64,000 nucleotides of DNA from Clostridia bacterium (GCA_017625615.1 JAGAKP010000068.1:54023-118022); one strand, 5' to 3'; numbered from the stretch's first letter, positions 2,146-34,116 are shown. Notes: generated by a model from the letters alone, not told the origin. Made by a program: numbers and translations.

Positions 2146-3558
2146 ATGACCGTCGGTGAAAAAATACAGTATTACAGAAAAAAGCAGGGCTTGTCCCAAG
2201 AGGACCTCGGTCAAAAGCTTATGGTAAGCAGACAGACCGTAAGCCTTTGGGAAATGGACAAGACCGTTCCGTCAATAGATAACCTCGTCCGTTTAAAGGA
2301 TATCTTCGGCGTTTCCGTTGACGAGATCCTTTGCGGCGGAGAAGTTGAAGCCGAAAGCACAGAACAGCCCCTTGAATCCTATACCGTCACATATACGAAG
2401 GACGAGGCAAAAGGACTTTTCAAATATTCCTTAAGAGCTATATTAAGAAGCTTTGTAATTTCAATTTTTGCTTTTATATTTTTGTTTATCGCATCAATAA
2501 ACGCCGGCGATATTGTAAAGGGCTTTTTTCTCGGAATCCTCGTGCTGTGGATCATCGCCTTTATAAGAACTCTTCTTCTTTTCCGCAAAAACCGCAACGC
2601 GGGATCGGAAAGAATGTCCCAAAGCACGTACCTTTACGACGTTTTTGAATCTCACCTCTCCTTAACCATAACCCATCCCGATAAAAGAAGAAGCCTTAAT
2701 ATAGATCCGAAGGATATTCAAAAGGTATATTTTACGGAAAGGTTTATTATCTTTCAGGTGTCTGACGAGCTGTATGCTTTAAAAGCGGATCAGGTTGGAG
2801 AGGACTCCCATCTGTATATGCTTTTAAAACTGGCTACGTCAAAGGCTCCCGTGTCCCGCGCAAGGGCAAAATGGCGCGCGTTGTCCATAATACTGTTTAT
2901 TGCTTCTATCTCAAGTATTATGCTTGCATTGCTATCGGTTAGCGTGGCAAGTACTATCAACGAAAAACACGTACAGAATATGTGGCTGTTTTTCCTGTAC
3001 CTGCCCATTCCCGTCGGTTCTATCGTATTTTACAGCCTGCTAAAGCGCAAGGGTGTCGTTTTCAAGAAAAACCTTATCGTGGGAATAATAATGTCGGCGC
3101 TCCTTTGTATTTACGGCTCATTCGTTCTGTTCCCCGAGCAGGTGTCCATAAACGGGGTTTACGAGGCATCTATCGAAAACGTCCTTTCGGAAGATTATAC
3201 TTCTCCCGACGTTATCAAGGTATTTCCCCTTAAAAAGGCAGAAGAACACATAGAGACCATTTGTATTTTTCAAACCGAGGACAAGGGCTTGGTGGTAGGC
3301 GCGCTGTACGGCTACGATGGCGATGAGACGACCTATTTTGAGGAGTTTGCTTCCGACGTTGAAATAGGTGAGCGGTATTATTCCGGCGGCTGTACCGGAG
3401 ATTACGATATCGGGTATCAGATATATGAGACCCGCAAGGACGCCCCCGACATTTCCTACGAGCTGCAGGAGATAACCGTCGACGGCAAAAAATATTATTT
3501 CTGCGTGGGCTATATCGGTCACTATATGTCGGACGATACCCACTGGGTAACCGAATAA
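2146..3558 (+). CDS. membrane-anchored XRE-family helix-turn-helix regulator
   Basis: N-terminal HTH_3 signature (EKIQYYRKKQGLSQEDLGQKLMVSRQTVSLWE). It is followed by several hydrophobic segments and a C-terminal domain that is probably extracytoplasmic. Confidence 0.75.
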   Translation: MTVGEKIQYYRKKQGLSQEDLGQKLMVSRQTVSLWEMDKTVPSIDNLVRLKDIFGVSVDEILCGGEVEAESTEQPLESYTVTYTKDEAKGLFKYSLRAILRSFVISIFAFIFLFIASINAGDIVKGFFLGILVLWIIAFIRTLLLFRKNRNAGSERMSQSTYLYDVFESHLSLTITHPDKRRSLNIDPKDIQKVYFTERFIIFQVSDELYALKADQVGEDSHLYMLLKLATSKAPVSRARAKWRALSIILFIASISSIMLALLSVSVASTINEKHVQNMWLFFLYLPIPVGSIVFYSLLKRKGVVFKKNLIVGIIMSALLCIYGSFVLFPEQVSINGVYEASIENVLSEDYTSPDVIKVFPLKKAEEHIETICIFQTEDKGLVVGALYGYDGDETTYFEEFASDVEIGERYYSGGCTGDYDIGYQIYETRKDAPDISYELQEITVDGKKYYFCVGYIGHYMSDDTHWVTE

Positions 3559-3702: not shown

Positions 3703-5445
3703 TTAGTTGTATTTCTTGCGTGCGGTGTAGTGGGTGTGGAGAAGCTCGTGAGCCTTGTGGCCGCCGATCTCGCCGAGGTATTCAGCGTAAAGCTTCTTAA
3801 CCTCTTCGTTTTCGTGAGACTTTCTCTTTGCCTTGCCTGCATCCTCTGCGTACAGAGCCTTTGCGCGCTCAGCCTTAACGTCAACGTAGCTGCGCTCGGT
3901 AGCAGAAACGATAGGAGTACCGCCGCCGTGGATACATCCGCCGGGACAAGCCATGATCTCGATAAAGTCGTACTGCTTTTCGCCGCTCTTTATGGATTCA
4001 AGAAGAGCCTTTGCGTTTGCGGTGCCGTGTGCAACTGCAACGCGTACGGTCTTGCCGTTGAGGTCGACCTCTGCTTCCTTGATACCGTCAAGTCCGCGAA
4101 CTGCGGTAAGGTTAACGTCGGTAAGCTCGTTGCCGGTAACAACCTCGTATACGGTACGGAGAGCTGCCTCCATAACGCCGCCGGTGGTACCGAAGATAAC
4201 GGATGCGCCGGTGGATTCGCCCATAAGGCTGTCAAAGTCGCTGTCGGGCAGACGAACGAAATCTATGCTTGCGGTCTTTATCATTCGTGCAAGCTCTCTT
4301 ACGGTGAGAACCGCGTCAACGTCCTTCATACCGTCTCTGGAAAGCTCGGGACGGGAAGCCTCAAACTTCTTGGAGGTACAGGGCATTACGGATACTACGT
4401 AAATATTGTTGGGATCAATACCTTCTTTTTCTGCGAAGTAGCTCTTTATGAGAGCACCTTCCATCTCGTGAGGAGATTTGCAGGAGGAAAGGTTGGGAAT
4501 AAATTCGGGATAGAAGGTCTCGCAGTACTTGATCCAGCCGGGAGAGCAGGAGGTGATCATGGGAAGAACACCGCCGTTCTGCATACGCTGAATAAGCTCG
4601 GTGCCTTCTTCCATAATGGTAAGGTCAGCGCCGAAATCGGTATCGAATACCTTGTCAAAGCCAAGTCTGCGGAGAGCGGAAACCAGCTTGCCGGTTACGG
4701 AAGTACCCATGGGAAGACCGAACTCTTCGCCGAGAGTAGCTCTTACTGCGGGAGCGGGCTGTACTACTACGTACTTTTCGGGATCGTTGAGAGCCGCCCA
4801 AACGTCAGCAGTGTTGTCCTTTTCGTGGAGTGCGCCTACGGGACAGGCGAGTATACACTGACCGCAGTATACGCAGGGTGCGTCAACGATAGAACGGTCG
4901 AATGCGGAGCCTACGGTAGTCTTTATACCGCGTCTGGAAAGGCCGATAGCGCCGATCTTCTGTACGTCGTTACAAGCGGCGATACAGCGGCGGCAGGAGA
5001 TACACTTGCTGTTATCACGTACCAGAGAAGGGGAGATATCGTCAAGTATAGTTTCGGTCTTTTCGCCGTCGTAGGGATAATCGCTTACTCCGTATTCCTT
5101 ACAAAGAGCTGCCAATTCGCAGTTACCGCTGCGTACGCAGGAGGTACACTCTCTGTTATGGTTGGAAAGGAGCAGCTCAAGGTTTATTTTTCTTGCCTTG
5201 CGCAGGTTTTCGGTGTTGGTGCGGATTTCCATTCCGTCGGAAATAGGAGCAACACAGGCAGCCTGATATGCTCTTGCGCCTTTAATCTCTACCAGACACA
5301 GACGGCACGCGCCGATCTGCTGTACGTCCTTAAGATAGCAAAGGGTGGGAATGTTTATATGGGCTTCTCTGGCAGCTTCAAGCACAGTATAATTTGCGGG
5401 TACGGTAACCTGAATGCCGTCTATGGTAATTGTTACGTTGTTCAT
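3703..5445 (-). CDS. hydA: [FeFe]-hydrogenase catalytic subunit with HydA/HndD-type architecture
   Basis: N-terminal 2Fe-2S ferredoxin-like domain, then 4Fe-4S motifs (CISCRRCIAAC, CVYCGQCILACP). H-cluster motifs are TSCSPGW, MPCTSKKFE and EIMACPGGCIHGGG. Confidence 0.9.
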   Translation of the reverse strand: MNNVTITIDGIQVTVPANYTVLEAAREAHINIPTLCYLKDVQQIGACRLCLVEIKGARAYQAACVAPISDGMEIRTNTENLRKARKINLELLLSNHNRECTSCVRSGNCELAALCKEYGVSDYPYDGEKTETILDDISPSLVRDNSKCISCRRCIAACNDVQKIGAIGLSRRGIKTTVGSAFDRSIVDAPCVYCGQCILACPVGALHEKDNTADVWAALNDPEKYVVVQPAPAVRATLGEEFGLPMGTSVTGKLVSALRRLGFDKVFDTDFGADLTIMEEGTELIQRMQNGGVLPMITSCSPGWIKYCETFYPEFIPNLSSCKSPHEMEGALIKSYFAEKEGIDPNNIYVVSVMPCTSKKFEASRPELSRDGMKDVDAVLTVRELARMIKTASIDFVRLPDSDFDSLMGESTGASVIFGTTGGVMEAALRTVYEVVTGNELTDVNLTAVRGLDGIKEAEVDLNGKTVRVAVAHGTANAKALLESIKSGEKQYDFIEIMACPGGCIHGGGTPIVSATERSYVDVKAERAKALYAEDAGKAKRKSHENEEVKKLYAEYLGEIGGHKAHELLHTHYTARKKYN

Positions 5446-5457
5446 TTTCGTTCCCCC

Positions 5458-7254
5458 TTATTTCTTTACTATTGCCTTCTTGGGGCAGCTTGCGAGACAT
5501 ACGCCGCACTTGATACACTTGGACTGATCTATAACGAAGGGGCTCTTGATAGTACCGCTGATCGCGCCAACGGGACACTTCTTGGAGCACAGAGAACAGC
5601 CTACGCACTTAACGGGATCGATAACGATTCTTGCAAGTGCCTTACATGCGCCTGCGGGGCATCTCTTTTCACGGATATGAGCTTCATACTCATCGCGGAA
5701 ATAACGAATGGTGGAAAGTACGGGGTTGGGAGCAGTCTGACCGAGACCGCAAAGTGCGGTAGCCTTGATAGTGTTACCAAGCTCGATAAGCTTTTCGATA
5801 TCGCCCTCTTCGCCCTTACCTTCGGTAATGCGCTCGAGTATCTCAAGCATTCTTCTGGTACCGATACGGCAGGGAGTACACTTACCGCAGGATTCATCAA
5901 CGGTGAAGCCCAGGAAGAACTTTGCAATATCTACCATACAGTTGTCCTCGTCCATAACGATAAGACCGCCGGAGCCCATCATGGAGCCGATAGCGATAAG
6001 GTTGTCGTAATCAACGGGAGTGTCGATAAGGGAAGCGGGGATACATCCGCCGGAAGGACCGCCGGTCTGCGCTGCCTTAAACTTCTTGCCGTTGGGGATA
6101 CCGCCGCCGATCTCTTCGATAATGGTGCGGAGAGGAGTACCCATGGGGATCTCAACAAGACCGGTGTTGGTGATCTTGCCGCCAAGCGCAAATACCTTGG
6201 TGCCGTGGGACTTTTCGGTACCGATGCTCTTGAACCAGTCTGCGCCGTTTATAATAATCTGAGGAATGTTTGCGTAAGTCTCAACGTTGTTGAGGATGGT
6301 GGGCTGACCGAACAGACCCTTAACAGCGGGGAAGGGAGGACGGGGTCTGGGCTCACCGCGGTGACCTTCGATAGAGGTCATAAGAGCGGTTTCTTCGCCG
6401 CAAACGAATGCGCCTGCGCCGAGACGGATATCAAGGTTGAACTTGAAGTCGGTACCGAATATGTTGTCGCCGAGAAGACCGTATTCCTTAGCCTGCTTTA
6501 TAGCGGTGGAAAGTCTCTGTACTGCGATGGGGTACTCTGCACGTACGTATATGTAGCCCTGATCTGCGCCGATAGCGTATCCTGCGATAGCCATAGCCTC
6601 GATAACTGCGTGGGGGTCACCCTCAAGTATGGATCTGTCCATAAATGCGCCGGGGTCGCCTTCGTCGGCGTTACAGCAAACGTATTTCTGTACGTTGCCT
6701 CTGTTGCCGGAAGCAAATTTCCACTTAAGGCCGGTGGGGAAGCCTGCACCGCCGCGTCCGCGGAGTCCGGAATCCAGAATGAGCTGGATAACCTCGTCGG
6801 GAGTCATTTCGGTTACGCACTTGCCCAGTGCGGTATAACCGTCACGGCCGATATATTCTTCGATATTTTCGGGATCTATAACACCGCAGTTACGAAGAGC
6901 GATACGCATCTGGCTTCTGTAGAATGCGGTCTCGCTGAGAGAAGAAGCAGCCTCGCCGCCTTCAACAACGGGATCGTTATAAACGAGTCTCTGTACGGGA
7001 CGTCCCTTAAGGAGATGCTCCTCAACTATTTCGGGGATATCCTCTGCGGTAACTCTTGAATAGAAAACACCCTCGGGATAAACTATCATTATGGGACCGA
7101 GAGCACACAGACCGAAGCATCCGGTCTGCACCATTTTAATTTCCTCTGTAAGTCCGTGCTTTTCAAGCTCGGCGGTCAGTGCGCTTCTGACAGCGGCACT
7201 GCCGGAGGAGGTACAGCCTGTACCTGCACAAATTAGTACGTGAGCGCGAATCAT
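5458..7254 (-). CDS. hydB: NuoF-like NAD(P)H-binding flavoprotein subunit of the hydrogenase
   Basis: Thioredoxin-like 2Fe-2S N-terminus (ICAGTGCTSSG), the NuoF core (GRGGAGFPTGLKW, ESCGKCTPCR) and C-terminal 2x[4Fe-4S] motifs. Confidence 0.9.
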   Translation of the reverse strand: MIRAHVLICAGTGCTSSGSAAVRSALTAELEKHGLTEEIKMVQTGCFGLCALGPIMIVYPEGVFYSRVTAEDIPEIVEEHLLKGRPVQRLVYNDPVVEGGEAASSLSETAFYRSQMRIALRNCGVIDPENIEEYIGRDGYTALGKCVTEMTPDEVIQLILDSGLRGRGGAGFPTGLKWKFASGNRGNVQKYVCCNADEGDPGAFMDRSILEGDPHAVIEAMAIAGYAIGADQGYIYVRAEYPIAVQRLSTAIKQAKEYGLLGDNIFGTDFKFNLDIRLGAGAFVCGEETALMTSIEGHRGEPRPRPPFPAVKGLFGQPTILNNVETYANIPQIIINGADWFKSIGTEKSHGTKVFALGGKITNTGLVEIPMGTPLRTIIEEIGGGIPNGKKFKAAQTGGPSGGCIPASLIDTPVDYDNLIAIGSMMGSGGLIVMDEDNCMVDIAKFFLGFTVDESCGKCTPCRIGTRRMLEILERITEGKGEEGDIEKLIELGNTIKATALCGLGQTAPNPVLSTIRYFRDEYEAHIREKRCPAGACKALARIVIDPVKCVGCSLCSKKCPVGAISGTIKSPFVIDQSKCIKCGVCLASCPKKAIVKK

Positions 7255-7271: not shown

Positions 7272-7643
7272 TTATATCTTATAATTTCCGATAGTGTATT
7301 CGGCTACGGGTTTTCCGCCCTTGATATGCTCTGCAACGATGCGCTTTGCCATATCGGGAGTAACCTTTACGTAAGTAACCTTTTCTTTGCCTGCTTCAAA
7401 AACCTCTACTACGGGCTCGTACTGACAAATGCCGATACATCCCGTCTGTGTTACCGTAGCGGTAGCGGACAGCCCCTCCTTGGAAACCTCTTCAACGAGG
7501 GTATTGAGAACGGGTCTTGCGCCTGCAGCGATACCGCAGGTAGCCATACCGACTACTATGCGGACGCCGTTGACACCCTCACGGATACCGACCTTGTCCT
7601 TCATCTTTTCTCTGATCTGAGCAAGTTCTGCTAATGTTTTCAT
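7272..7643 (-). CDS. thioredoxin-like [2Fe-2S] ferredoxin (HndB-like)
   Basis: Cys pattern ATCGIAAG...QTGCIGICQYEP. Positioned directly upstream of hydB. Confidence 0.7.
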   Translation of the reverse strand: MKTLAELAQIREKMKDKVGIREGVNGVRIVVGMATCGIAAGARPVLNTLVEEVSKEGLSATATVTQTGCIGICQYEPVVEVFEAGKEKVTYVKVTPDMAKRIVAEHIKGGKPVAEYTIGNYKI

Positions 7644-7683: not shown

Positions 7684-8223
7684 TTATTTTTCGTACTGTT
7701 GCGTCGTGTAAGCCTTTATCCAAAGCTGTACGTCGGGGTTGGATAAGGGTACACCCTGCAGGACCTCACGCAGTGCGCGTGTATCCAGCTCCACCGTTTC
7801 CTTTCCCTCAATTTTATGGGTAAATACCATATCTCCCTCGCCGCAGCCCTGCGCAAGCAGGCACACCGTGGAAGCGATATCCCCAAGGGGAGTGAAATCT
7901 ATGTGGCTTTTGTTGAACACGCCTGTTATTACCGTCCCGTGATTTACGGGGTCCTTGGTGCTTTGGATGGTGATATACCCTCCCGTCTGCTCCGCCGCCT
8001 GACGGAACAAGGGGATACCCAAGCCCACCTTGCGGGTGGTGCGGGTGGTGTAAAAGGGGTTGGATACTTGCTTCAGTGTATCCTCACTCATACCGCAGCC
8101 GTTATCGACTATCCTTATGGTAAGCTTGTCTGCGCTTTCTTCCAATATTATTTCCGTAAGAGTAGCTCCCGCGGTAAAGGAATTTTGCGCTATATCAAGT
8201 ATGTTTAACGAAAGCTCTTTCAT
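7684..8223 (-). CDS. GHKL-superfamily (HATPase_c) ATP-binding protein
   Basis: N-box-like LDIAQNS, G1 DNGCGM and G2 GLGIPL motifs. No His-phosphoacceptor (DHp) domain is visible. Confidence 0.65.
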   Translation of the reverse strand: MKELSLNILDIAQNSFTAGATLTEIILEESADKLTIRIVDNGCGMSEDTLKQVSNPFYTTRTTRKVGLGIPLFRQAAEQTGGYITIQSTKDPVNHGTVITGVFNKSHIDFTPLGDIASTVCLLAQGCGEGDMVFTHKIEGKETVELDTRALREVLQGVPLSNPDVQLWIKAYTTQQYEK

Positions 8224-8948
8224 TTTCCGCCTCGCAGATAGTCTATAATCCGGTTTCGCACTTCCTCCGCCGTGCCGTGTGCGGACAGGGGAAGAAAATT
8301 CTCTGCCTCGTTAATATCCCATAAACAGTGAGCGTCACTGTCGGAAATAACGGGTGTGTTCTCAAGAATTGGGTTATTCTCTTTTATTTTTTCCGTTTTG
8401 CTTTTGTCCTTTATCTCCACACAGCCGAACACGGGTGCTTCGGGCATCATACCCAGAATACCGATCATACCGTTTGAGGTCTTGTCGATATGTGCGGGCA
8501 CTACTGCCGCGCCGTATTTTGACGCCTTTTCATACAGCTCGTCAACGGAAAGCATGGTGGCTGCGGGAAGCAGATATTCGTATTCGCCGATAATATTATC
8601 GTCCTCGTCAAGTATCTGCTGGTTACCGAAGAGGTCTATGCGGTTTTTTATCTTCATACGGTACCCGTCCAGCTCCTGTTCAAAGCCTTCGGCGTCCTCC
8701 ACCGTCCGAAAATACACCAGCACGTGTATTTCCTCGGCAGTGGTGACCTCCATTCCCGGTACAGCCACGATCCCGTAATGGTCGCACACCCTTTCAAAGG
8801 GACGGCAGTTTTTGCAGGTATTGTGGTCGGTAATGGCTACCGCACGGAGATTTTTGATTTTTGCCATTCCCGCTATATTATTCACCGTCATATCCTCGTC
8901 CCCGCAGGGAGACAGGCAGGAATGTATATGCAGGTCGTATGACGTCAT
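8220..8948 (-). CDS. PHP-domain phosphoesterase
   Basis: N-terminal YDLHIHSCLSPCGD and later TDHNT motifs typical of the PHP fold. A 4-nt overlap with the next gene suggests translational coupling. Confidence 0.7.
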   Translation of the reverse strand: MTSYDLHIHSCLSPCGDEDMTVNNIAGMAKIKNLRAVAITDHNTCKNCRPFERVCDHYGIVAVPGMEVTTAEEIHVLVYFRTVEDAEGFEQELDGYRMKIKNRIDLFGNQQILDEDDNIIGEYEYLLPAATMLSVDELYEKASKYGAAVVPAHIDKTSNGMIGILGMMPEAPVFGCVEIKDKSKTEKIKENNPILENTPVISDSDAHCLWDINEAENFLPLSAHGTAEEVRNRIIDYLRGGK

Positions 8949-9271
8949 AACAGCTTGCTCAGCTTTAAGCAGATGTTATACGCGCTGTCGGGCATAAGAA
9001 GCATATTTACTCCTCTTGCCTCCGCCATAGCGATAACGTCATCCTCGGGACGGGCGTTTTCCGCAATAATTACACAGCTTACGTCGGAAAGGGATGCCAC
9101 TGCGGGTACGTTTATGTTGGACATTATAGTCACCCATACGTTGCCTGCCCGTGCTTTTCCCATTACCCAGCTAAGAAGGTCGCCGGTATAACAGCCGCGC
9201 ACCGTCTTTTCCCCTTCGGGCAGGGAAAGGACTTGGGGTTCAAGTTGTGTTATAAGCTCGTTTACCGTCAT
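8945..9271 (-). CDS. DRTGG-domain-like small protein
   Basis: About 108 aa, with a sequence pattern and gene context like the DRTGG proteins in hydrogenase clusters. The family assignment is from memory of that family, not from a search. Confidence 0.5.
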   Translation of the reverse strand: MTVNELITQLEPQVLSLPEGEKTVRGCYTGDLLSWVMGKARAGNVWVTIMSNINVPAVASLSDVSCVIIAENARPEDDVIAMAEARGVNMLLMPDSAYNICLKLSKLL

Positions 9272-9287
9272 TTCTCGCTTGGCTCCT

Positions 9288-10556
9288 TTATTTGTTTTCG
9301 TTTAATTTCTTTTTTGCAAGCACCACACATTCTTCGGGGTGGGCTTTTCCTCTTACCACGTCGTCCGCAAAGGCACGGCAGTTCGGTGCGCCGCAGTATC
9401 CGCAGTCGATTTCGGGCAGAGTTTCAAAAAAGCTTGCCGCTTCCGCCATAAGGCGTATAGCCGTTTTTCTGTCAGAGGAAAACATACTGACAGGGTTTAC
9501 CTCCGGAAAATCGCCAACATCGTATTCCGCAGGGAATGGAGTTCCGTCTGCGGAGCGGGGCGGGCGGTTCTGGCTTACCGGAAGGTATCTTCTTATGTTT
9601 TGTAATCTTACTCGGGCGATATAGGGATTTTCCATTGTCAGGACACCGCCGACGCATCCGCCGGGGCAGGCGTTAAGCTCAATAAAGTCCAGACAGGGAT
9701 AGGATCCCGTTTCTATATCGTCAAGTACCTTTATAACGTTTTCGATACCGTCTGCCGCAAGGTATCTGTCGTTGAGAAGGGAAGAGGATTCTCCGCCGCT
9801 GGTAGCCCAGTTAACGCCTATCATTCCCGTGCGGGAGATGGGTGCGGGTGATATCTCGTCCTTCATGGTGTCGAGCAGCTCGAAATACATATCGCTCATA
9901 GAGACTACGAGATCGATATTGCTTTTTTCACCGCAAAGTGCGTTTTTAACGTAGCTTACCTTTGCCGTGCAGGGGGATATAAAGACTACTCCAATATCCT
10001 CGTCCGTCAATTCGGGGTGCTCTTTTCTGGCTTTTTCTCTTGCCAGCTTACCCGCTATCTCAACGGGCGGCATTATGGGAATGAGGTTTTTTGCCAGAGT
10101 GGGGAAGCGCAGTGAAATGAGCCTTACTATAACGGGGCAGGCAGAGCTTATAACGGGGCGTTGAATATCCTCGGATTTAAGATACCGTCTCGTGTATTCC
10201 GTAACCATTTCCGCGGCGCACGCCACCTCGAAAACGTCGTCAAACCCGTAATCCAGAAGTCCCTTAAGCATACAGTCCACGTCGTCCAGATTATCGAACT
10301 GACCGTACAGCGTAGGGGGCGGCAGTGCTATTTTGTATTTGAATTTTTTAATGCTGTCAAGGGGATCGTAGATAGCCTTTTTGGCTTTATGTGGACACAG
10401 ACGTATACATTCACCGCAGTCGATACAACGCTCGGTGTTTATAACGGCGTGTCCGTCCCGTATACGTATCGCTTCGGTGGGACATCTGCGCAGACAATGG
10501 GTACAGCCCTTGCATTTTTCGCTTAACAGCGATACCGAGTGTCTGTATGCCGACAT
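9288..10556 (-). CDS. hydrogenase-like Fe-S protein; putative sensory [FeFe]-hydrogenase (HydS-like, no PAS domain)
   Basis: Two ferredoxin-type CX2CX2CX3CP motifs (CKGCTHCLRRCP, CIDCGECIRLCP). H-domain motifs are SSACP (relay Cys replaced by Ala), SPCTAKVSY and ELNACPGGCVGG. A C-terminal CGYCGAPNC cysteine motif is also present. Confidence 0.75.
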   Translation of the reverse strand: MSAYRHSVSLLSEKCKGCTHCLRRCPTEAIRIRDGHAVINTERCIDCGECIRLCPHKAKKAIYDPLDSIKKFKYKIALPPPTLYGQFDNLDDVDCMLKGLLDYGFDDVFEVACAAEMVTEYTRRYLKSEDIQRPVISSACPVIVRLISLRFPTLAKNLIPIMPPVEIAGKLAREKARKEHPELTDEDIGVVFISPCTAKVSYVKNALCGEKSNIDLVVSMSDMYFELLDTMKDEISPAPISRTGMIGVNWATSGGESSSLLNDRYLAADGIENVIKVLDDIETGSYPCLDFIELNACPGGCVGGVLTMENPYIARVRLQNIRRYLPVSQNRPPRSADGTPFPAEYDVGDFPEVNPVSMFSSDRKTAIRLMAEAASFFETLPEIDCGYCGAPNCRAFADDVVRGKAHPEECVVLAKKKLNENK

Positions 10557-10569
10557 TTCTTCCTCACTT

Positions 10570-11001
10570 TCACACGTATACCGTCATGGTGATCTTCGTG
10601 CCCTTGCCGAGCTTGGAATCTATCACCATTTCGTCGGTATATCTTTTCATATTCGGGAGACCCATTCCCGCGCCGAAGCCCAGCGAACGGATGTTATCGG
10701 GCGCGGTGGAAAATCCTTCCTGCATCGCCTGCTCAATATCGGCGATACCGGGGCCCGTATCTGTAAGTATGATTATTATTCTGTCTTCTTCGATGACGAC
10801 CTCTGCCGTTCCGCCGCCTGCGTGGATGACCATGTTTATCTCACCCTCGTACATGGCGATGGAAACTCTGCGTATGGTCTCAGGCTCAAAGCCCACTTCA
10901 CGGAGTATCTTTTTGACCTTGACGGAAGCTTCGCCCGCCGATGTGAAGTTGGCTCCGTCCACATCGAAGCGATAGGATAACTTCTGATTATCCAAGGTCA
11001 T
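10570..11001 (-). CDS. RsbW/SpoIIAB-type anti-sigma-factor-like serine kinase (HATPase_c_2)
   Basis: About 143 aa with DTGPGI and GFGAGMGLPNM motifs. The start is moved to ATG 11001, which is preceded by AAGGAG and sits just after the upstream stop. The track start at 11040 would overlap that gene by 38 nt. Confidence 0.65.
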   Translation of the reverse strand: MTLDNQKLSYRFDVDGANFTSAGEASVKVKKILREVGFEPETIRRVSIAMYEGEINMVIHAGGGTAEVVIEEDRIIIILTDTGPGIADIEQAMQEGFSTAPDNIRSLGFGAGMGLPNMKRYTDEMVIDSKLGKGTKITMTVYV

Positions 11002-11002
11002 A

Positions 11003-11347
11003 TCACTCCTTGCGACCGAGTCCGTTAATATAAAGCTCACCGCACGCTTCGTACATACGCATATCGGTGGTCATTACCACGATACCGCTTTCCCGTGCGG
11101 CTTCTATCATTTCCTCCGAAGGCTTTTTGCTGCGGACGAAAACGATACAGCGCATATCCATCATACTTGCGGTGCGAATGACCTGAAGGTTTACGAGACC
11201 CGTGAGCAGTACCGCCTGGTTTTTAACGTAAGCCAGAACGTCGCTCATCATATCGCTGCCGCAGGCGGAATTTACTTCTGCTTCGCCGTGATCCTCACAG
11301 CACAGAATTTCCGCGTCTATTATCTTTGCCAGCTCAGCTATCTTCAT
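11003..11347 (-). CDS. DRTGG-domain-like small protein
   Basis: 114 aa with VLLTGLVNLQVIRTA, typical of this family. It is the second copy in the operon. Confidence 0.5.
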   Translation of the reverse strand: MKIAELAKIIDAEILCCEDHGEAEVNSACGSDMMSDVLAYVKNQAVLLTGLVNLQVIRTASMMDMRCIVFVRSKKPSEEMIEAARESGIVVMTTDMRMYEACGELYINGLGRKE

Positions 11348-11362: not shown

Positions 11363-11842
11363 TTATCTGTATTTGTCCAGAATGTCTTTTACGTCTGCGG
11401 GAGTAAGTCTGCCGTAAACGTCGTTATTGATAGTCATAACGGGAGCGAGACCGCAGCAGCCGAGGCAGCGTGTATCCTGAATAGTGAATACACCGTCGGG
11501 TGTGGTTTCGCCTGCGCCGATACCGAGTATCTCCATAACCTTGTCAAGAACTGCCTGCGCGCCTTTAACGTAGCAAGCGGTACCGGTGCATACGCTTATG
11601 ATATATTCGCCCTTGGGCTGAAGTGAAAACTGCGAATAAAACGTAGCAACACCGTATACCTCGGTAAGGGGGATATCAAGGGAATCCGCAATAAGCTCTT
11701 GTGTTTCCAAAGAAAGGTATCCGAAAAGTCCCTGTGCGTACTGCATAATGGGCATAAGGGGGCCGTCTGCGTTTTTATGCTCGTTGATAAACTCCTTCAG
11801 CTCGGCTGTTTTTTGCGCCATTTGCTCTTTTGTTAATGCCAT
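11363..11842 (-). CDS. hydC: NuoE-like [2Fe-2S] subunit of the hydrogenase
   Basis: NuoE pattern VCTGTACYVKG...CLGCCGLAPVM. The start is set at ATG 11842, 8 nt after AGGAGG; the track start lies 15 codons upstream. Confidence 0.85.
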   Translation of the reverse strand: MALTKEQMAQKTAELKEFINEHKNADGPLMPIMQYAQGLFGYLSLETQELIADSLDIPLTEVYGVATFYSQFSLQPKGEYIISVCTGTACYVKGAQAVLDKVMEILGIGAGETTPDGVFTIQDTRCLGCCGLAPVMTINNDVYGRLTPADVKDILDKYR

Positions 11843-11904
11843 TCTTTTTGTCCTCCTGAAATTACTTTCGGAACAGATTATATCCATTCACTAATAATAA
11901 ATAT

Positions 11905-11933
11905 ATAGTATCATAAAACTTTGGTATTTTCAA
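11905..11933 (-). promoter_or_regulatory. candidate promoter of the hydC...hydA operon
   Basis: On the minus strand: TTGAAA (11933-11928), a 17-nt spacer, then TACTAT (11910-11905). Confidence 0.4.
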
Positions 11934-11993
11934 TAAAAATATTAAAAAACGTAGTCATTTTTATCAAAAAAACTTTATTTTCTCGAAAATCTA

Positions 11994-12002
11994 TGGTATA
12001 AT
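11994..12002 (+). promoter_or_regulatory. extended -10 element upstream of the alpha-glucosidase gene
   Basis: TGgTATAAT lies about 25 nt upstream of the ATG at 12027. The -35 is weak. Confidence 0.35.
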
Positions 12003-12026
12003 TTTGCAGAAGGGAGTTGTATATGT

Positions 12027-13685
12027 ATGAAAAATAAGACTTGGTGGCATTCAAAGGTCGCTTATCAGATATATCCGCGCTCGTTTATGGATTCCAACGG
12101 CGACGGTATCGGTGATATAAACGGCATTATCAGCAAGCTGGATTACCTTAAGGAATTGGGTGTGGAGATCGTATGGCTCTCTCCCGTTTACCGTTCTCCT
12201 ATGGACGACGGCGGATACGATATTTCGGATTATTACGATATAGACCCTATCTTCGGTAATAAAGAGGATATGGATAAGCTTATCAATGAAGCAAACAAGC
12301 GCGGCATAAAGCTGCTTATGGACCTTGTTATCAACCACTGCTCCGACGAGCACGAGTGGTTCCAAAAGGCGCTCAAGGACCCCGATTGCGAGGAAGCGGA
12401 GTATTTCTGGTTCCGCGAGAGTGCGGGCGGCCCTCCCAACAACTGGCGTTCAATGTTCGGCGGTTCCGCTTGGGAAAACGTGGGCGGCGACAGATATTAT
12501 CTTCATCTGTTCTCCAAAAAACAGCCCGACCTCAACTGGGAGAACCCCAAGCTGAGACAAAAGCTGTACGATATGGTAAATTATTGGCTGGATAAGGGCT
12601 TGGGCGGCTTCCGTATAGACGCTATCACCCATATCAAAAAGGATCCCACCCTTAAATCCTATCCGGCAGATGCGGACGGAATGGCAGGCTGCTTTGCTCC
12701 TACCAGAAACTTCCCCGGTATCGGTGAGTATCTCACCGACCTGCGCAAAAACACCTTTGATAATTACGAGTGCGTAACCGTTGCGGAGGCGGCGGGTGTG
12801 CCCTACGGCGATCTTGGCGCATACGTGGGCACTGAGGACGGATATTTCGATACTATGTTCGATTTTTCATATTCCGAGCCTTACGCCTACGGAAACGGCT
12901 GGCACGATTGCCTTCGTCCCGGCGAATGGGATTTTGCGGATTGGCGCAACAAGCTGTATATGAGCCAGACCGAAACGGAAAAGATCGGCTACGGTGCAGT
13001 GTTTATAGAAAACCACGATTATCCCCGTTCTATGGATAAGTTTATTCCCGATGCGTACAGAAGCGTCCGCGCACAGCGTATGCTTGGTAATATGTACTTC
13101 TTTATGCGCGGTATTCCCTTTATATATCAGGGACAGGAGCTGGGTATGACCAATACCCGCATGGACAGAATCGAGGATTACGACGATATCTCCACCAAAA
13201 ACCATTACCGCGTCGCTTTAAGAGACGGTCTTTCTCCCGAAGAAGCCTTAAAGGGAGTTGCCCGTTATTCCCGTGATAACGCACGCGTTCCTTTCCCTTG
13301 GACCAAGGGTGAAAACGGCGGATTTACCACCGGCACGCCTTGGCTCAAGTGCCATCCCGATTATGAGACCTTTGCCGCTGAGGATCAGATGAAGGAAAAG
13401 GACAGTATGTTCCATTGGTACAAGAATATGATAGATCTCCGCTCAGAGTATGGGGATATTCTCGTAGAAGGCTCCTTCACCCCCATGGACTACGGCGTTG
13501 AAAAGAGCGTTTGCTACGCCCGCACCACCGAAAAGGGCACGATTATAAGCGTAAACTCCTTCTCTCCCGAAGTGACCGAATATGCTTGCGGAGAGGGCAA
13601 GGTAATAAACGGCGACGGTATAAAGAGCTACCAAAACGGTATCGTTACTCTTGAGCCCTTCGGCTGTGCTTTGATACTTTTATAA
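12027..13685 (+). CDS. GH13 alpha-glucosidase / oligo-1,6-glucosidase
   Basis: WWHSKVAYQIYPRSFMDSNGDGIGD, GFRIDAI and FIENHD conserved regions of GH13 exo-alpha-glucosidases. Confidence 0.85.
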   Translation: MKNKTWWHSKVAYQIYPRSFMDSNGDGIGDINGIISKLDYLKELGVEIVWLSPVYRSPMDDGGYDISDYYDIDPIFGNKEDMDKLINEANKRGIKLLMDLVINHCSDEHEWFQKALKDPDCEEAEYFWFRESAGGPPNNWRSMFGGSAWENVGGDRYYLHLFSKKQPDLNWENPKLRQKLYDMVNYWLDKGLGGFRIDAITHIKKDPTLKSYPADADGMAGCFAPTRNFPGIGEYLTDLRKNTFDNYECVTVAEAAGVPYGDLGAYVGTEDGYFDTMFDFSYSEPYAYGNGWHDCLRPGEWDFADWRNKLYMSQTETEKIGYGAVFIENHDYPRSMDKFIPDAYRSVRAQRMLGNMYFFMRGIPFIYQGQELGMTNTRMDRIEDYDDISTKNHYRVALRDGLSPEEALKGVARYSRDNARVPFPWTKGENGGFTTGTPWLKCHPDYETFAAEDQMKEKDSMFHWYKNMIDLRSEYGDILVEGSFTPMDYGVEKSVCYARTTEKGTIISVNSFSPEVTEYACGEGKVINGDGIKSYQNGIVTLEPFGCALILL

Positions 13686-14822: not shown

Positions 14823-16256
14823 TCATTGAATGTAAAGTAACAGATCGTGATCGCAATGCTTTAGATATTTGTGGTACCAAACGTTGTAGCCTTCATATTC
14901 GCGGACGGAATTGCTTCCCGATACGTTGCAATAATACGTTTTCTTTATCAGAACGCCGTTTTCGTCGTAGAAGTATTCGGTTACGCTGTCAACTTTACCG
15001 CTATGATCGTTATATCCTTTTTCCGTCTTTTTAATTACTCTGCCGTTTTCATCGTAGGTATACTCATATCTGCAATAATCGTTTTCCAGATGCTCAATGC
15101 TTTTGTAATCGAAAGACGTTCTGTAACCGTTTTCGTCATATTCGTATACGTAGCGGAATATCTGAGTTTCGCCTTTTTTCTTTTCGTCCACCAAAAGATT
15201 TCCGTTTTCATCGTAGGTGAGCGTCTCAATGGCAACGGAACCGTCATAAAAACGCGTTTCCGCCTTTATCAGCTTTCCGTTTTCTTCGTATGTGTACGTC
15301 GTGACCTCGGAGTTGACCGTTTCTTCGATAATTCTGCCTTCCGAATCGTGCTTCCATTTTTCGATTCGGTAAACCCCTTGATCGCTGCTATAATATTCTC
15401 TGTGGATCATTCTTCCGTTGCTGTCGTATGCGTATCTTATTCCCTGTATTTTATCGTTGGAAGTATGGGTCGTAGTTTCTTTTGATGCAAGCAATCCGTT
15501 GCCGTACCAAGTAAACACGGTGGTTGCTGAATACCCGTCACGTTCCTCTGTGGTTTTCACCAGCGTACCGTCGGTATTGTAGTGGTAGTCAAGGTAGTCG
15601 CGCGTTCCGCCTTCAAATAAACCGTTTTTGTTAAAAATATAACTTATCACGCTTTCGCTGTATCCTCCGTTACTGTAAGAGGAGCGATACATAGATACGG
15701 GAAAACCGTTTTTATCAAGCGAATACTGAACGTATGCAAATCCGTCGTCGTTACGAATTTTATCGTTGTAATCGAAGTTTTGTTTAACATAAAATTCACC
15801 GAAATTTTCAAGCAGTTGAATAGCGTAAATATCGTTTTCTTTTTCTTGCAACAGATCGAACGCTTTTCTGTATTCACCGTTGTTAATAAGCGAAATTATT
15901 TCTTCATATCCCTTGGGAACGGTAATAACTTCGGGCGTTTCGGGGAAATCCTCGCTTATCATAGGCTTCGCAGGCTCTTCTTCCGGCTTGCTTTCTTCGG
16001 GTACGCTTACCTCCGGCTCGCTCTCTTCGGGCTTGCTTTCTTCGGGAGTGCTTTCATCGGGCTTACTCTTCTCGGGTTTGCTCTCCTCGGGCTCGCTTTC
16101 TTCGGGCTCGGACACACTTTCGTTCACACTCTCTTCTTGTGATACAGAGCGGGAAACATCTTCGCTTGTGTCGGCAGGCTCGTCGGCTGCGCATGAAACC
16201 GAAAATAAAATGACGGATAAAATAAGTGCTGTAAAAACTAAAACTTTGGTTTTCAT
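14823..16256 (-). CDS. lipoprotein with an acidic E/S/K/P linker and YD/RHS-like repeats
   Basis: Signal peptide plus lipobox (LFSVSC). The linker carries (E/K)S(K/E)PE repeats. Repeated Y-x-Y-D-E-N-G motifs follow (YTYDENGRVIKK, YFYDENGVLIKK, YEYDENGY). Confidence 0.7.
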   Translation of the reverse strand: MKTKVLVFTALILSVILFSVSCAADEPADTSEDVSRSVSQEESVNESVSEPEESEPEESKPEKSKPDESTPEESKPEESEPEVSVPEESKPEEEPAKPMISEDFPETPEVITVPKGYEEIISLINNGEYRKAFDLLQEKENDIYAIQLLENFGEFYVKQNFDYNDKIRNDDGFAYVQYSLDKNGFPVSMYRSSYSNGGYSESVISYIFNKNGLFEGGTRDYLDYHYNTDGTLVKTTEERDGYSATTVFTWYGNGLLASKETTTHTSNDKIQGIRYAYDSNGRMIHREYYSSDQGVYRIEKWKHDSEGRIIEETVNSEVTTYTYEENGKLIKAETRFYDGSVAIETLTYDENGNLLVDEKKKGETQIFRYVYEYDENGYRTSFDYKSIEHLENDYCRYEYTYDENGRVIKKTEKGYNDHSGKVDSVTEYFYDENGVLIKKTYYCNVSGSNSVREYEGYNVWYHKYLKHCDHDLLLYIQ

Positions 16257-16290
16257 TTGTTTCTCCTCCTTGAAAATGTGTGTATTTTTT
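16164..16290. repeat. junction module copy 1 (signal-peptide coding, RBS and 5' leader)
   Basis: A 127-nt stretch nearly identical to 18913-19039, with only a few mismatches by eye. Confidence 0.8.
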
Positions 16291-16322
16291 TGCGTTTTGC
16301 AATTATGGTGTAAGGCGTACCG

Positions 16323-17342
16323 TCATTCTTTATTTATGGGATGAACCGTGAAATATTCTTTCTGCATTTCGGGTGTACCGAAAAGGTAATCTGTATTGTG
16401 CGCCTTGTATTCCAAGTTTCTGAAAATTTCATTGTATGTTTCGAGGGTTATATCGAAATCATCAATGAACTTCAAAATATTTTGTTCTTTGTCGTCGGTG
16501 TTTGCAAGCCATTGGTTGAAAGCGTCCTGTCCAACGTAATTGATCAAAAGACGGTCTATGATGTAATAATATCTGGTATATCCGTTCCTGTCCTCGATAT
16601 GGGTGTAGTGATCATCAAGATCAGCATATCTGTATCCGTAGGGAATAAACCGTTCATCGTTCCAGAACTCGTTGTTATACCACACGTCTTCGGCAAATGT
16701 GGGATAAAATTCGGCATACACAGGCGTGCCGTAATGCTCATATTCACCCAAAGACATTATACGGCGGTATTCGTAATCCGTGTAAAAGCCTATATAATCC
16801 TCCCACGGTATGTTGAAATACTCCAAAACGTGTCCGGCGGCGATGTATTCGGTTCTATCAAACATAGCGAGATACTTTTCCCTTTCCGCAGTGCTGAAAT
16901 ACGAGTCTACGAAATGGTAATCCAAGCCGTAATAGCCTTTTACGTGCCGTTGACCGTTGGGGGCAACGGATCGGGAAATATATAATGCTTGGTCGATCAT
17001 TCCCGGCAGATCCTCCTGCGAATACCATTCGCCCTCGGGAAGCGTTCCGATAACGTAGCCGTCGTATTTTGAATAATCCACCACCGGCTCGCTTTCTTCG
17101 GGCACGCTTTCTTCTTCGGGTATGCTTTCTTCTTCGGGTATGCTTTCTTCGGGTACGCTTTCTTCTTGCGCCGTACTTTCTTCCGGCATGGAAACGTCTT
17201 CGCTCACACTCGTGTCGGCGTGTTGCGCCTCGGAGCGGGAAACGGTATCGTTCATATCGGCAGGCGCGTTGGCGTTACATGAAAACATAAACAAAATAAG
17301 GGTGACAATTAATGCTGTAAATACTAAAGTCTTGCTTTTCAT
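16323..17342 (-). CDS. Tyr-rich lipoprotein of unknown function
   Basis: The start is set at ATG 17342 (MKSKTLVFTALIVTLILFMFSC lipobox), preceded by AAGGAGGAG. The track's upstream extension only translates the conserved leader. Confidence 0.65.
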   Translation of the reverse strand: MKSKTLVFTALIVTLILFMFSCNANAPADMNDTVSRSEAQHADTSVSEDVSMPEESTAQEESVPEESIPEEESIPEEESVPEESEPVVDYSKYDGYVIGTLPEGEWYSQEDLPGMIDQALYISRSVAPNGQRHVKGYYGLDYHFVDSYFSTAEREKYLAMFDRTEYIAAGHVLEYFNIPWEDYIGFYTDYEYRRIMSLGEYEHYGTPVYAEFYPTFAEDVWYNNEFWNDERFIPYGYRYADLDDHYTHIEDRNGYTRYYYIIDRLLINYVGQDAFNQWLANTDDKEQNILKFIDDFDITLETYNEIFRNLEYKAHNTDYLFGTPEMQKEYFTVHPINKE

Positions 17343-17456
17343 TTGTTTCTCCTCCTTGAAAATGTGTGTATTTTTTGGTGTTTTGCGTGTATAGAGTTTT
17401 TTACCAGTTTCCTGCAAGAAGCTCTGCTTTTATGGGCAGCATGCTCTCGTCGGCGT
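17335..17456. repeat. junction module copy 2 (C-terminal coding end, intergenic leader, RBS and start of the next gene)
   Basis: A 122-nt stretch identical to 18999-19120 except for 2 mismatches. Confidence 0.85.
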
Positions 17457-19005
17457 CCTGCATTTTTAGTGAAATTTGGACTTTAAGAGATCCATTGTCT
17501 TCCGTAGCAGAAAAATCAAATCCGATAAGCATGCCTGTTTTTAAATCATAAGTGAAGTTGGCAGTATCTTCAAAACTGTTTTTATTTTCTCGCTTGTCTA
17601 TAATTATACCATCTCTGGGACGAATATGGTAATACAAGAATGACAGATATCTGTCTGTGCAATCAGTAGATACTGTAACGGTTCCGTCGGAATTGTATGT
17701 GTATTCCGTGCCTATAAAATTTGCAGAGCGAAGTAAATATAGCTCGAAGTCGTTTTTTGAAAGGGAATCAAAGTCGTTTCTGTTCATACTGAAAGCTATA
17801 TTTTCGTATATTGATTCACAATAAGATAACAGAATAAATTCTTCACTGGCTTGCGTTGTTTCCGTTTTGTCCTGTTCCCAGTGATCACCGTATTGATATC
17901 CGTAACCGTATTGTTGTCTGCGAACGGTTTGCTCTCCGTCTTTTAAATAAGAGTAGATGTTTGAATAAAAACCGTCAAGTCTGGTGCTTTCGTTTAAAGG
18001 GTAAGCGTTGTACGGCATCCTCTCGTAACTGAAAGCAGAAGTTATATCGTCATCGTTTTTTAAAACGATCTGCTTTATGTTTAAATATGACCACACGTCT
18101 TCTGCACCCGGAGTGAAGGTTCCGATATCGTAAAGGTTAACCTCAATCAGCTTGTTTGTAAAAACAGATTCATCATACACAAAGAAACTGTTATAAAACC
18201 GATTAAACTCTGTCATCGATTCTTTAAATGAATTTAAAGATGAGTATGTGTCGGTTTTATATATTTCATTTTCATCAATGCTGATTTCTTGGGTATCAAG
18301 ATATAACTTAAGATCAGTTTGAACTCCGTCGACGAAGACAGTGAAAACGTAACCAATACCTTCATAAACTGTCAACGCGCCCCGTACAAACGATTCTTCT
18401 TCAGCGTTGTCGGTGTTATTTAATGCGCAAGAACCGCTGAACTGATAAACTTGGTCTCCACGGTCAGAAGTTTTACGATCAACATCAAGTGTTTGGCTAT
18501 TTATAATTTTCAATAAAAGGTCTTTTTTCGAAAACGCGGGTTCTGCATATACAGAGATTAGCTCATTATAGTCATTTTCATCTCCGGATATAATGGAACG
18601 CGAAGTATCATTGACGATTATATCGATATTTTTATCCTTATAACTGTATTTGAACATATCAGTTTTAAGTGAGTGAATATCATTTTCAAAGTCATAAGAC
18701 AAAGAATAGCCATCATAAACTATTCGACCGCGTTTTTCTGTGTTAGCTGTAATCGTTTCCGCTACCTGAGCAAAAGCTTTTTTTATTTCCTCGGGCTTAC
18801 TTTCTTCTATAGGCAGGCTTGTTTTTTCGGGCGGCGGCGCATTTTCGCCAACGCTTTCTTCGGTGCTTGCTTCAACACTTTCGTCTTTGCTTTCGGAGGC
18901 CGAAACTGAACTGCTTGTGTCGGCGGGCTCGTCGGCTATGCATGAAACCGAAAATAAAATGACGGATAAAATAAGTGCTGTAAAAATTAAAACTTTGGTT
19001 TTCAT
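17401..19005 (-). CDS. lipoprotein paralogous to the extracellular domain of the adjacent M56 protein
   Basis: The start is set at ATG 19005 (MKTKVLIFTALILSVILFSVSC). It shares the blocks EEIKKAF, IYKTDTYS and FNRFYNSF and an identical C-terminus DADESMLPIKAELLAGNW with ORF 19064..21721. Confidence 0.65.
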   Translation of the reverse strand: MKTKVLIFTALILSVILFSVSCIADEPADTSSSVSASESKDESVEASTEESVGENAPPPEKTSLPIEESKPEEIKKAFAQVAETITANTEKRGRIVYDGYSLSYDFENDIHSLKTDMFKYSYKDKNIDIIVNDTSRSIISGDENDYNELISVYAEPAFSKKDLLLKIINSQTLDVDRKTSDRGDQVYQFSGSCALNNTDNAEEESFVRGALTVYEGIGYVFTVFVDGVQTDLKLYLDTQEISIDENEIYKTDTYSSLNSFKESMTEFNRFYNSFFVYDESVFTNKLIEVNLYDIGTFTPGAEDVWSYLNIKQIVLKNDDDITSAFSYERMPYNAYPLNESTRLDGFYSNIYSYLKDGEQTVRRQQYGYGYQYGDHWEQDKTETTQASEEFILLSYCESIYENIAFSMNRNDFDSLSKNDFELYLLRSANFIGTEYTYNSDGTVTVSTDCTDRYLSFLYYHIRPRDGIIIDKRENKNSFEDTANFTYDLKTGMLIGFDFSATEDNGSLKVQISLKMQDADESMLPIKAELLAGNW

Positions 19006-19120
19006 TTGTTTCTCCTCCTTGAAAATGTGTGTATTTTTTGGTGTTTCGCGTGTATAGAGTTTGTTACCAGTTTCCTGCAAGAAGCTCTGCTTTTATGGGC
19101 AGCATGCTCTCGTCGGCGTC
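18913..19120. repeat. junction module copy 3 (covers both copy-1-like and copy-2-like parts)
   Basis: 18913-19039 matches 16164-16290. 18999-19120 matches 17335-17456. Confidence 0.85.
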
Positions 19121-34033: not shown

Positions 34034-34116
34034 TGGTGCGGATGACAGGACTTGAACCTGCACGCAATTGCACCGGTTTCTAAGACCGGCTCGTCTGCCA
34101 GTTCCGACACATCCGC
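34034..34116 (-). tRNA. tRNA-Leu (anticodon UAG), CCA encoded
   Basis: The reverse complement reads GCGGATG..CCGGTCTTAGAAACCGG (anticodon loop CTTAGAA)..long variable arm..GCAGGTTCAAGTCCTGTCATCCGCACCA. Length is 83 nt with a class II cloverleaf. Confidence 0.9.

Follow-up and report, generated by a model that had tools for sequence, protein, structure and literature searches.

A group D (M2e) putative sensory [FeFe]-hydrogenase and its candidate regulatory cassette in a HydABC-type operon of a Clostridia bacterium

We report here on a 64,000-nucleotide (nt) stretch of DNA from a Clostridia bacterium (GCA_017625615.1, JAGAKP010000068.1:54023-118022), referred to below as the window, and more precisely on ten genes of its minus strand that run from hydC to hydA and include a hydrogenase-like protein of 422 amino acids (aa), HydS. 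Besides the genes of a HydABC-type hydrogenase, this operon contains two small DRTGG-domain proteins (DRTGG-1 and DRTGG-2), two GHKL-type ATP-binding proteins (GHKL-1 and GHKL-2) and a PHP-family phosphoesterase (PHP). The best explanation of these data, to which we would give an even chance, is that the region is a regulatory cassette accompanying HydABC-type NADH/ferredoxin-linked [FeFe]-hydrogenase operons, whose relay would act post-translationally. An H2-responsive regulation of HydABC by the cassette seems reasonably probable, and the specific relay outlined below, from HydS through GHKL-1 and DRTGG to HydABC with PHP as reset, is proposed tentatively.

As judged from its sequence and its modelled fold, the 422-aa protein is almost certainly a TamHydS-type HydS of group D (M2e), a class of putative sensory hydrogenases. 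Pfam detected two Fer4 motifs, an Fe_hyd_lg_C domain (PF02906, 114.8 bits) and a C-terminal PF04060 domain (47.6 bits), and no match to a PAS domain. The protein was 46% identical to TamHydS over 416 residues (E 3e-133). The TamHydS sequence used for this comparison was rebuilt from the codon-optimised gene given in the supplement of PMC13104023, and the reconstruction was validated by a database protein (P0121) that is 99% identical to it. In an alignment of 86 HydS sequences, from the window and 85 related loci, the four H-cluster cysteines C140, C196, C297 and C301 (CpI C300, C355, C499 and C503), carried by the motifs SSAC140P, SPC196TAK and AC297PGGC301, were invariant, and so were all 16 cluster cysteines, which comprise eight further N-terminal and four C-terminal residues. 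A preliminary description of the region, made from the DNA sequence, had recognised these four H-cluster cysteines and had pointed out that the proton-relay cysteine is replaced by alanine. Both points stand: the position of CpI C299 is occupied by Ala (A139) in 85/86 sequences, and the relay cysteine and the group A proton path are missing from all 86. The same description had mentioned a C-terminal CX2CX4C motif, which is indeed present, with four cysteines and not three, as the complete Cx2Cx4Cx16C described in PMC8163306 (C385, C388, C393 and C410). The position of CpI M353 is Ser (S194) in 83 of the 86 sequences, and two invariant glutamates, E256 and E293, match E252 and E289 of TamHydS, which form an alternative proton path (PMC10407848). 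In every sequence and fold test that was run, with the residue positions taken from PMC8163306, the protein behaved as a group D HydS, in agreement with the earlier view of a HydS-type protein devoid of PAS domain.

The fold of HydS was predicted with AlphaFold2 (AF2), as no group C or group D structure was found in the PDB. A first model based on a 20-sequence alignment was discarded (predicted local distance difference test score, pLDDT, 42); the model based on a 130-sequence alignment reached a pLDDT of 90.8. Its 50 best PDB matches were all [FeFe]-hydrogenases (probability 1.00, TMq 0.61-0.67), and the part of the model that is unmatched in the PDB is plausibly the C-terminal domain, which is absent from PDB hydrogenases. 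The preliminary description had let its interpretation depend on a profile and structural check of this protein; the PF02906 match, and a model that resembles [FeFe]-hydrogenases only, give no sign that it would be unable to bind an H-cluster. The likeness to TamHydS covers the domain order (two [4Fe-4S] motifs, H-domain, Cx2Cx4Cx16C, no PAS), the Ala and Ser at the positions of CpI C299 and M353 and the two glutamates of the alternative path, and it extends to the locus, with the same five accompanying genes beside HydABC. The two proteins differ at the position of CpI M497, which is Asn in the window (N295, codon at 9672-9674) and Leu in TamHydS, the only characterised member of group D. Asn was found there in 76 of the 86 sequences, and Leu only in those of Thermoanaerobacter type. 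In TmHydS, the cluster potential is tuned by the residue at this second-sphere position (PMC10055695); members of the gut and rumen clade may therefore sense a different H2 range.

The cassette was then considered in related genomes. A scan of 185,579 species genomes gave at least 553 confirmed loci, of which the 80 best were taken; these derive from gut, rumen and other Clostridia metagenome-assembled genomes (MAGs), and their HydS is 55-92% identical to that of the window. Eight more distant loci (L081-L088) were added through exact-protein look-ups. This sample is skewed to close relatives; nonetheless, the cassette spans several orders. The same ten genes were present in 87/88 loci, wherever the contig was long enough, so that the linkage to hydABC anticipated by the preliminary description extends to relatives. 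Since the gene set recurs in this way across several orders, its composition is not due to chance, and the ten genes travel together as a single block.

The gene order of the window was found in 78 of the 80 best loci, as well as in a 3.58-Mb genome (L086). A second arrangement, order B, was observed in L008 and L080: DRTGG-1–GHKL-1–HydS–DRTGG-2–PHP–hydC–GHKL-2–fdx–hydB–hydA. It also occurs in Thermoanaerobacter (L081), C. bescii (L082), Coprothermobacter (L083), Thermoanaerobacterium (L085) and a metagenome scaffold (L087), all five with a gap of 110-210 nt before hydC, and the contig that encodes a 99%-identical TamHydS protein (L088) starts in order B and ends inside PHP. Order B is the more widely distributed arrangement. 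There, GHKL-2 is placed between hydC and fdx, and is therefore native to the structural operon. Thus, where the preliminary description saw six genes inserted into hydCBA, the block combines a sensor module of five genes with a structural operon of five others, GHKL-2 already among them, and the lineage of the window is distinct only by the move of hydC to the head of the operon. Compared with the TamHydS locus, hydC precedes the sensor module instead of following PHP, and the ten genes form one tight unit, whereas 110-170 nt separate the two modules in Thermoanaerobacter. The hyd cluster of Caldanaerobacter and Halsa_1862–1871 of Halanaerobium have the same gene set as the window (PMC4694547, PMC4237134), with hydC likewise located after PHP.

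In all loci, DRTGG-1 immediately precedes GHKL-1, and the invariant core of the cassette consists of DRTGG-1, the SpoIIAB-like kinase GHKL-1 and HydS, with DRTGG-2 and PHP as a second coupled pair. In a Peptococcaceae MAG (L084, 7496-13025), only the trio DRTGG-1–GHKL-1–HydS was found, with DRTGG-2, PHP and HydABC not nearby; judging from this locus, there may be lineages in which the trio serves other outputs. Also, a CheW gene lies 165 nt upstream of the trio in this MAG and a PAS-GGDEF gene two genes downstream.

The best named relative of GHKL-1 was the anti-sigma F factor SpoIIAB (TIGR01925, 62.3 bits vs a cut-off of 135), and its closest solved relative was again SpoIIAB (PDB 1TIL, E 5e-9); RsbW models gave 24-27 bits, with cut-offs of 145-155. 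These scores are far under the equivalog cut-offs, so GHKL-1 is a relative, and not an orthologue, of SpoIIAB/RsbW. Residues 36-134 of SpoIIAB could be aligned with it, and the two proteins have the N-box E/N, a DxGxGI-x-DIE-x-A segment and the lid motif GMG in common; among 83 orthologues of GHKL-1, E65, N69, D94xGxG98 and G121-G127 were kept at 95% or more. The protein is thus predicted to have the Bergerat ATP-binding fold, N-box and G1 and G2 lid motifs of the SpoIIAB/RsbW family. GHKL-2 starts straight at the N-box, and its N14, D40xGxG44 and G67xG69 are conserved; no HisKA domain was matched, no conserved histidine was seen among its orthologues, its C-terminal ~75 aa had no family match, and a PDB sequence search gave no close solved relative. 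It is the counterpart of tte0891 of Caldanaerobacter (PMC4694547) and of Halsa_1865, annotated as "histidine kinase" (PMC4237134).

DRTGG-1 matched PF07085 above the cut-off of 25.2 (32.3 bits) and DRTGG-2 fell just short of it (23.5 bits). BLAST revealed no similarity between the two, and hhalign aligned their profiles over the full length (99.1%, E 1.9e-18); on this profile comparison, DRTGG-2 is a degenerate paralogue of DRTGG-1. The residues of DRTGG-1 conserved at 95% or more include D32, M34-A39, T49, G50, R58 and T59. A D-[LM]-[LM]-S-x-V motif is common to both proteins, S35 of DRTGG-1 being aligned with S34 of DRTGG-2, and T49, G50, R58 and T59 are lost in DRTGG-2. The longer proteins among the 150 best relatives of DRTGG-1 were SPOR+DRTGG proteins or chimeric fragments; the database protein P0247 (389 aa), for example, has SPOR and DRTGG in one chain. 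In order-B loci of Thermoanaerobacter type, a SPOR-like protein of ~265 aa is encoded directly upstream of DRTGG-1 (L081:8412-9203, L085:7405-8199, L087:5822-6658, L088:4235-5026). In the PHP protein, H7, H9, D41, H42, E67, H75, H153, D205 and H207 are kept at 95% or more (82 orthologues), which corresponds to a predicted complete metal-ligand set of the PHP fold. No close solved relative of DRTGG-1 or PHP came out of PDB sequence searches, and a literature search combining DRTGG and hydrogenase found no paper on DRTGG proteins in a hydrogenase context.

All proteins of the operon were searched against Pfam and NCBIfam, and the domain calls of the preliminary description were confirmed for every protein it had named. 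The searches detected no HisKA, receiver, STAS or DNA-binding domain in the ten proteins; for the six proteins encoded between hydC and fdx, the preliminary description had already stated that a DNA-binding domain, a receiver domain and a STAS partner are missing. Accordingly, the cluster holds neither of the two elements of a two-component system, a HisKA/DHp domain with a phospho-accepting histidine and a receiver partner. The partners of a classical partner switch, namely STAS, PP2C and sigma factor, were absent from the ten proteins, and none of them is conserved in the flanks of the 80 loci. Clustering of 366 flanking open reading frames (ORFs) of these loci showed no conserved family common to unrelated loci, and hence no canonical output regulator that the window would have lost. 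An "AraC family regulator" is said to flank TamHydS (PMC8163306); none was seen in the Thermoanaerobacter locus nor in the contig with the 99%-identical TamHydS protein. As no DNA-binding partner was ever linked and an ATPase stands among the structural genes, a post-translational output appears the most likely.

The relay that we put forward would start with the binding of H2 at the slow H-cluster of HydS, followed by a conformational change of this protein; such a change reporting H2 has been suggested for TamHydS, at least as the work is cited by PMC13104023. The change would be read through direct contact with GHKL-1 and DRTGG-1, the other members of the never-separated trio. GHKL-1 would then phosphorylate or sequester a DRTGG protein, as SpoIIAB does with SpoIIAA, and the serine common to both DRTGG paralogues is, speculatively, a candidate phospho-site. 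PHP together with DRTGG-2 could reset the switch, and the output would fall on the activity or assembly of HydABC, perhaps via GHKL-2. It is conceivable, if somewhat doubtful, that DRTGG, SpoIIAB-like kinase and HydS, with the DRTGG-2/PHP pair, represent an undescribed type of partner switch in which DRTGG replaces STAS and PHP replaces PP2C, and which would constitute an H2-responsive, post-translational on/off switch of an electron-bifurcating hydrogenase, operating with no transcription factor.

Several points weigh against the favoured explanation of a regulatory cassette with a post-translational relay. We know of no report of phosphorylation, protein contact or an H2-dependent phenotype for a group D cassette. 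To our knowledge, the DRTGG domains of other proteins are ligand-binding or dimerisation modules with no known phospho-acceptor among them. Because STAS, PP2C and sigma factor are missing, the analogy with partner switching rests on one protein family. HydABC as purified from relatives reportedly lacks the GHKL-2 protein, both in the work of Soboh in 2004 and in the complexes studied by cryo-electron microscopy. Finally, none of the 150 best relatives of DRTGG-1 in a set of 1.84 billion representatives was a fusion of DRTGG with a kinase.

The output could also be transcriptional. GHKL-1 would then be a true anti-sigma factor for an unlinked sigma factor, released upon an H2 signal from HydS/DRTGG-1, with control of the hyd operon or of fermentation genes. 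That SpoIIAB is both the nearest named and the nearest solved relative of GHKL-1 speaks for this idea, as does the assumption that group C sensory hydrogenases regulate expression (PMC10055695, PMC5707799). However, a sigma factor or STAS gene is linked in 0/88 loci, GHKL-1 reaches only 62 bits where the SpoIIAB model requires 135, and non-sporulating lineages carry the cassette too; we therefore hold this alternative to be unlikely.

Another possibility is that HydS is not a sensor and works as a low-rate catalytic or electron-entry module, or as an assembly or repair factor of HydABC, with the GHKL, DRTGG and PHP proteins as ATP-dependent chaperone or maturation helpers. GHKL folds do include chaperones, and one of the two ATPases is located among the structural genes. 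Also, TamHydS does turn over H2 and H+ (PMC8163306), and its C-terminal cluster is not reduced by H2 (PMC13104023). This would nevertheless be a quite improbable role for proteins that, in all 86 cases, lack the relay cysteine and the group A proton path, the activity being very low (PMC10407848). Moreover, the trio of L084 occurs without any HydABC, and a synthetic operon with tte0891 and without the five upstream genes served to express the HydABCD of Caldanaerobacter in E. coli (PMC4694547). Least probable of all, and in our opinion very unlikely, is a small-molecule relay in which the DRTGG proteins bind an adenine nucleotide hydrolysed by PHP, so that H2 is integrated with energy charge and no protein is phosphorylated: DRTGG domains are known in CBS-pyrophosphatases as well as in the regulatory region of Pta, the weak NCBIfam matches of both DRTGG proteins are CBS-type diphosphatases and the weaker PHP matches include nucleotide phosphatases and RNases, but all these matches are far under the family cut-offs, no nucleotide cyclase or synthetase is linked, and R58, T59, T49 and G50 of DRTGG-1 are lost in DRTGG-2.

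Post-translational regulation of HydABC by the cassette, which we favour, can be compared with previously described systems. Group C hydrogenases (M2f: TmHydS, R. albus HydS, HfsB) resemble HydS by an H-cluster site without relay cysteine and a C-terminal [4Fe-4S] motif, and their genes also lie beside a working hydrogenase, with kinase or phosphatase genes nearby (PMC8163306, PMC5707799, PMC3561251). They differ by a PAS domain and a PP2C-type serine phosphatase partner (HfsC), whereas the window has no PAS, a PHP protein as candidate phosphatase and two extra DRTGG proteins. For group C, signalling from HydS to an adjoining Ser/Thr kinase was proposed (PMC5707799). SpoIIAB–SpoIIAA–SpoIIE and RsbW–RsbV–RsbU share with the window a small stand-alone SpoIIAB-like ATPase with its ATP lid and a linked phosphoesterase gene; in contrast, the window has no STAS antagonist, PP2C or sigma factor in cis, roles that DRTGG and PHP would need to fill. 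In Ralstonia HoxBC–HoxJ–HoxA, the genes of working hydrogenases likewise have a slow hydrogenase as their H2 sensor (PMC5707799), but the [NiFe] metal site is unrelated and the system relies on a PAS histidine kinase and a response regulator, neither of which is in the window.

That M2e hydrogenases are linked to kinases and to bifurcating hydrogenases was already published between 2010 and 2014. Carere et al. (2012) tabulated hydrogenases of type "D M2e" whose genes lie upstream of those of a trimeric bifurcating hydrogenase (Athe_1292, Csac_1857, TTE0887, Cthe_0335, Cphy_3798, Teth39_1463) and, citing Calusinska 2010, pointed out nearby protein kinases (PMC3561251). Mormile (2014) described the whole cluster in Halanaerobium, including PHP, "histidine kinase" and anti-sigma-type kinase (PMC4237134), and Kelly et al. 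(2015) reported the natural order hydC–tte0891–hydD–hydB–hydA in Caldanaerobacter (PMC4694547). Land et al. (2020) characterised TamHydS, encoded upstream of a bifurcating hydrogenase with an adjoining kinase-like ATPase, and raised the question of signal transduction (PMC8163306). TamHydS binds an H-cluster, turns over slowly and was proposed as a sensor with unknown output (PMC8163306, PMC10407848, PMC13104023), the last of these studies dating from 2026 and reporting the unreduced C-terminal cluster mentioned above; its sensory function is itself a hypothesis. Thus, of the interpretation given in the preliminary description, the sensor-type protein and the missing output domains are retained, and the insertion is not; the arrangement itself is not new, as it is found in PMC3561251 and PMC4237134. 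The window is a further copy of a known Clostridia cassette, adds only a rearranged gene order and offers no particular handle on the signal output.

Group D hydrogenases are intensively studied as spectroscopic models. The present comparison narrows the search for their signalling target to an invariant trio and a coupled DRTGG-2/PHP pair, with no DNA-binding partner linked. The cassette is present in biofuel organisms that are amenable to genetics (C. thermocellum, C. bescii, Thermoanaerobacterium) and is also carried by many Clostridia of gut and rumen; elucidation of the relay would therefore matter for H2 and ethanol yields and for the transfer of hydrogen between gut species.

The structural genes point to a HydABC-type operon by sequence, with a group A HydA accompanied by NuoE-like and NuoF-like subunits. 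The closest solved HydA chains were the HydA1 of the A. woodii and T. kivui bifurcating complexes, that of the A. woodii HydABC complex (7Q4V) being the first (E 3.8e-235). Residues 298-304 of HydA (4531-4551) read TSCSPGW where CpI reads TSCCPGW, so that a serine occupies the position usually given as a [4Fe-4S]H ligand, Cys300. As TSCSPGW is common to all 49 HydA orthologues of the loci and to the solved A. woodii HydA1, it is a subfamily trait and not a defect.

The features of the operon are listed in Table 1. The tight, co-directional layout given in the preliminary description was reproduced by the ORFs, with intergenic spacings of -4 to +40 nt. Two junctions, DRTGG-2/PHP and PHP/GHKL-2, are 4-nt overlaps, which suggests that these genes are translationally coupled. 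An AGGAGG ribosome-binding site stands 8 nt before the ATG at 11842, which is therefore the likely start of hydC, as previously assigned, although the ORF reaches 11887. GHKL-1 likely starts at ATG 11001, 2 nt past the DRTGG-1 stop.

Table 1. Genes of the operon and candidate promoter, in the order of the coding strand.
Feature	Position	Strand	Support
hydC, NuoE-like 2Fe-2S subunit of HydABC	11363..11842 (ORF to 11887)	-	PF01257, 177.6 bits
DRTGG-1, stand-alone DRTGG-domain protein, 114 aa	11003..11347	-	PF07085, 32.3 bits
GHKL-1, SpoIIAB/RsbW-like Ser-kinase-type ATPase, ~143 aa	10570..11001 (ORF to 11040)	-	HATPase_c_2; TIGR01925
HydS, group D (M2e) putative sensory [FeFe]-hydrogenase, 422 aa	9288..10556	-	46% identity to TamHydS
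DRTGG-2, degenerate paralogue of DRTGG-1 (by profile comparison), 108 aa	8945..9271	-	PF07085, 23.5 bits; hhalign
PHP-family metal-dependent phosphoesterase, 242 aa	8220..8948	-	PF02811, 35.4 bits
GHKL-2, histidine-kinase-type ATP-binding domain without DHp/H-box, 179 aa	7684..8223	-	HATPase_c, 52.9 bits
Small 2Fe-2S ferredoxin-like protein (HydD-type; fdx)	7272..7643	-	PF01257 weak; NF041612, 45 bits
hydB, NuoF-like FMN/NADH subunit	5458..7254	-	Complex1_51K, NADH_4Fe-4S, Fer4 x2, N-terminal 2Fe-2S domain
hydA, catalytic [FeFe]-hydrogenase, HydABC type	3703..5445	-	NF040763, 917 bits vs cut-off 765
Promoter-like site TTGAAA-17-TACTAT with TG (candidate)	11905..11933	-	consensus scan only

The 140 nt upstream of hydC are AT-rich and bear promoter-like hexamers, and no terminator-like site was detected on the coding strand inside the operon, nor any RNA element of Rfam. 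Rex-like operators (TTGTTAAnnnnTTAACAA or TTGTGAAnnnnTTCACAA, at most 2 mismatches) were sought in the 240 nt upstream of the first cluster gene. None was found upstream of hydC in the window (11852-12092), where the best match had 4 mismatches. Such operators were present in 15/77 upstream regions (L001-L087), for example in L045 at -115, L014 at -119 and L047 at -61, and dinucleotide shuffles gave 1.0 +/- 0.9. On these matches, the whole cluster is probably under NADH/NAD+ control in many relatives.

The surroundings are unrelated to the operon: on one side lie the genes of AsnA, a NUDIX protein and a membrane protein with an HTH_3 domain, on the other those of a GH13 enzyme and a Gfo/Idh/MocA oxidoreductase. 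The HTH_3 protein (470 aa, plus strand, 2146-3558) has an N-terminal Xre-type HTH_3 domain and several hydrophobic segments, and its gene faces the end of hydA in convergent orientation; elsewhere, conservation beside the cluster was not seen, one similar gene being located ~1.3 kb past hydA in L025. A 1109-aa open frame on the plus strand (3730-7059), antisense to the whole of hydA and the greater part of hydB, shows nothing to suggest that it is a gene and has the look of a shadow ORF opposite a strongly biased coding strand. Upstream of the operon, the sugar genes are followed on the minus strand by a stretch (14823-21721) encoding an RHS-repeat protein, two proteins without family match and a BlaR1-type M56 peptidase. 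A tRNA-Leu at 34034-34116 is the sole RNA gene detected in the window.

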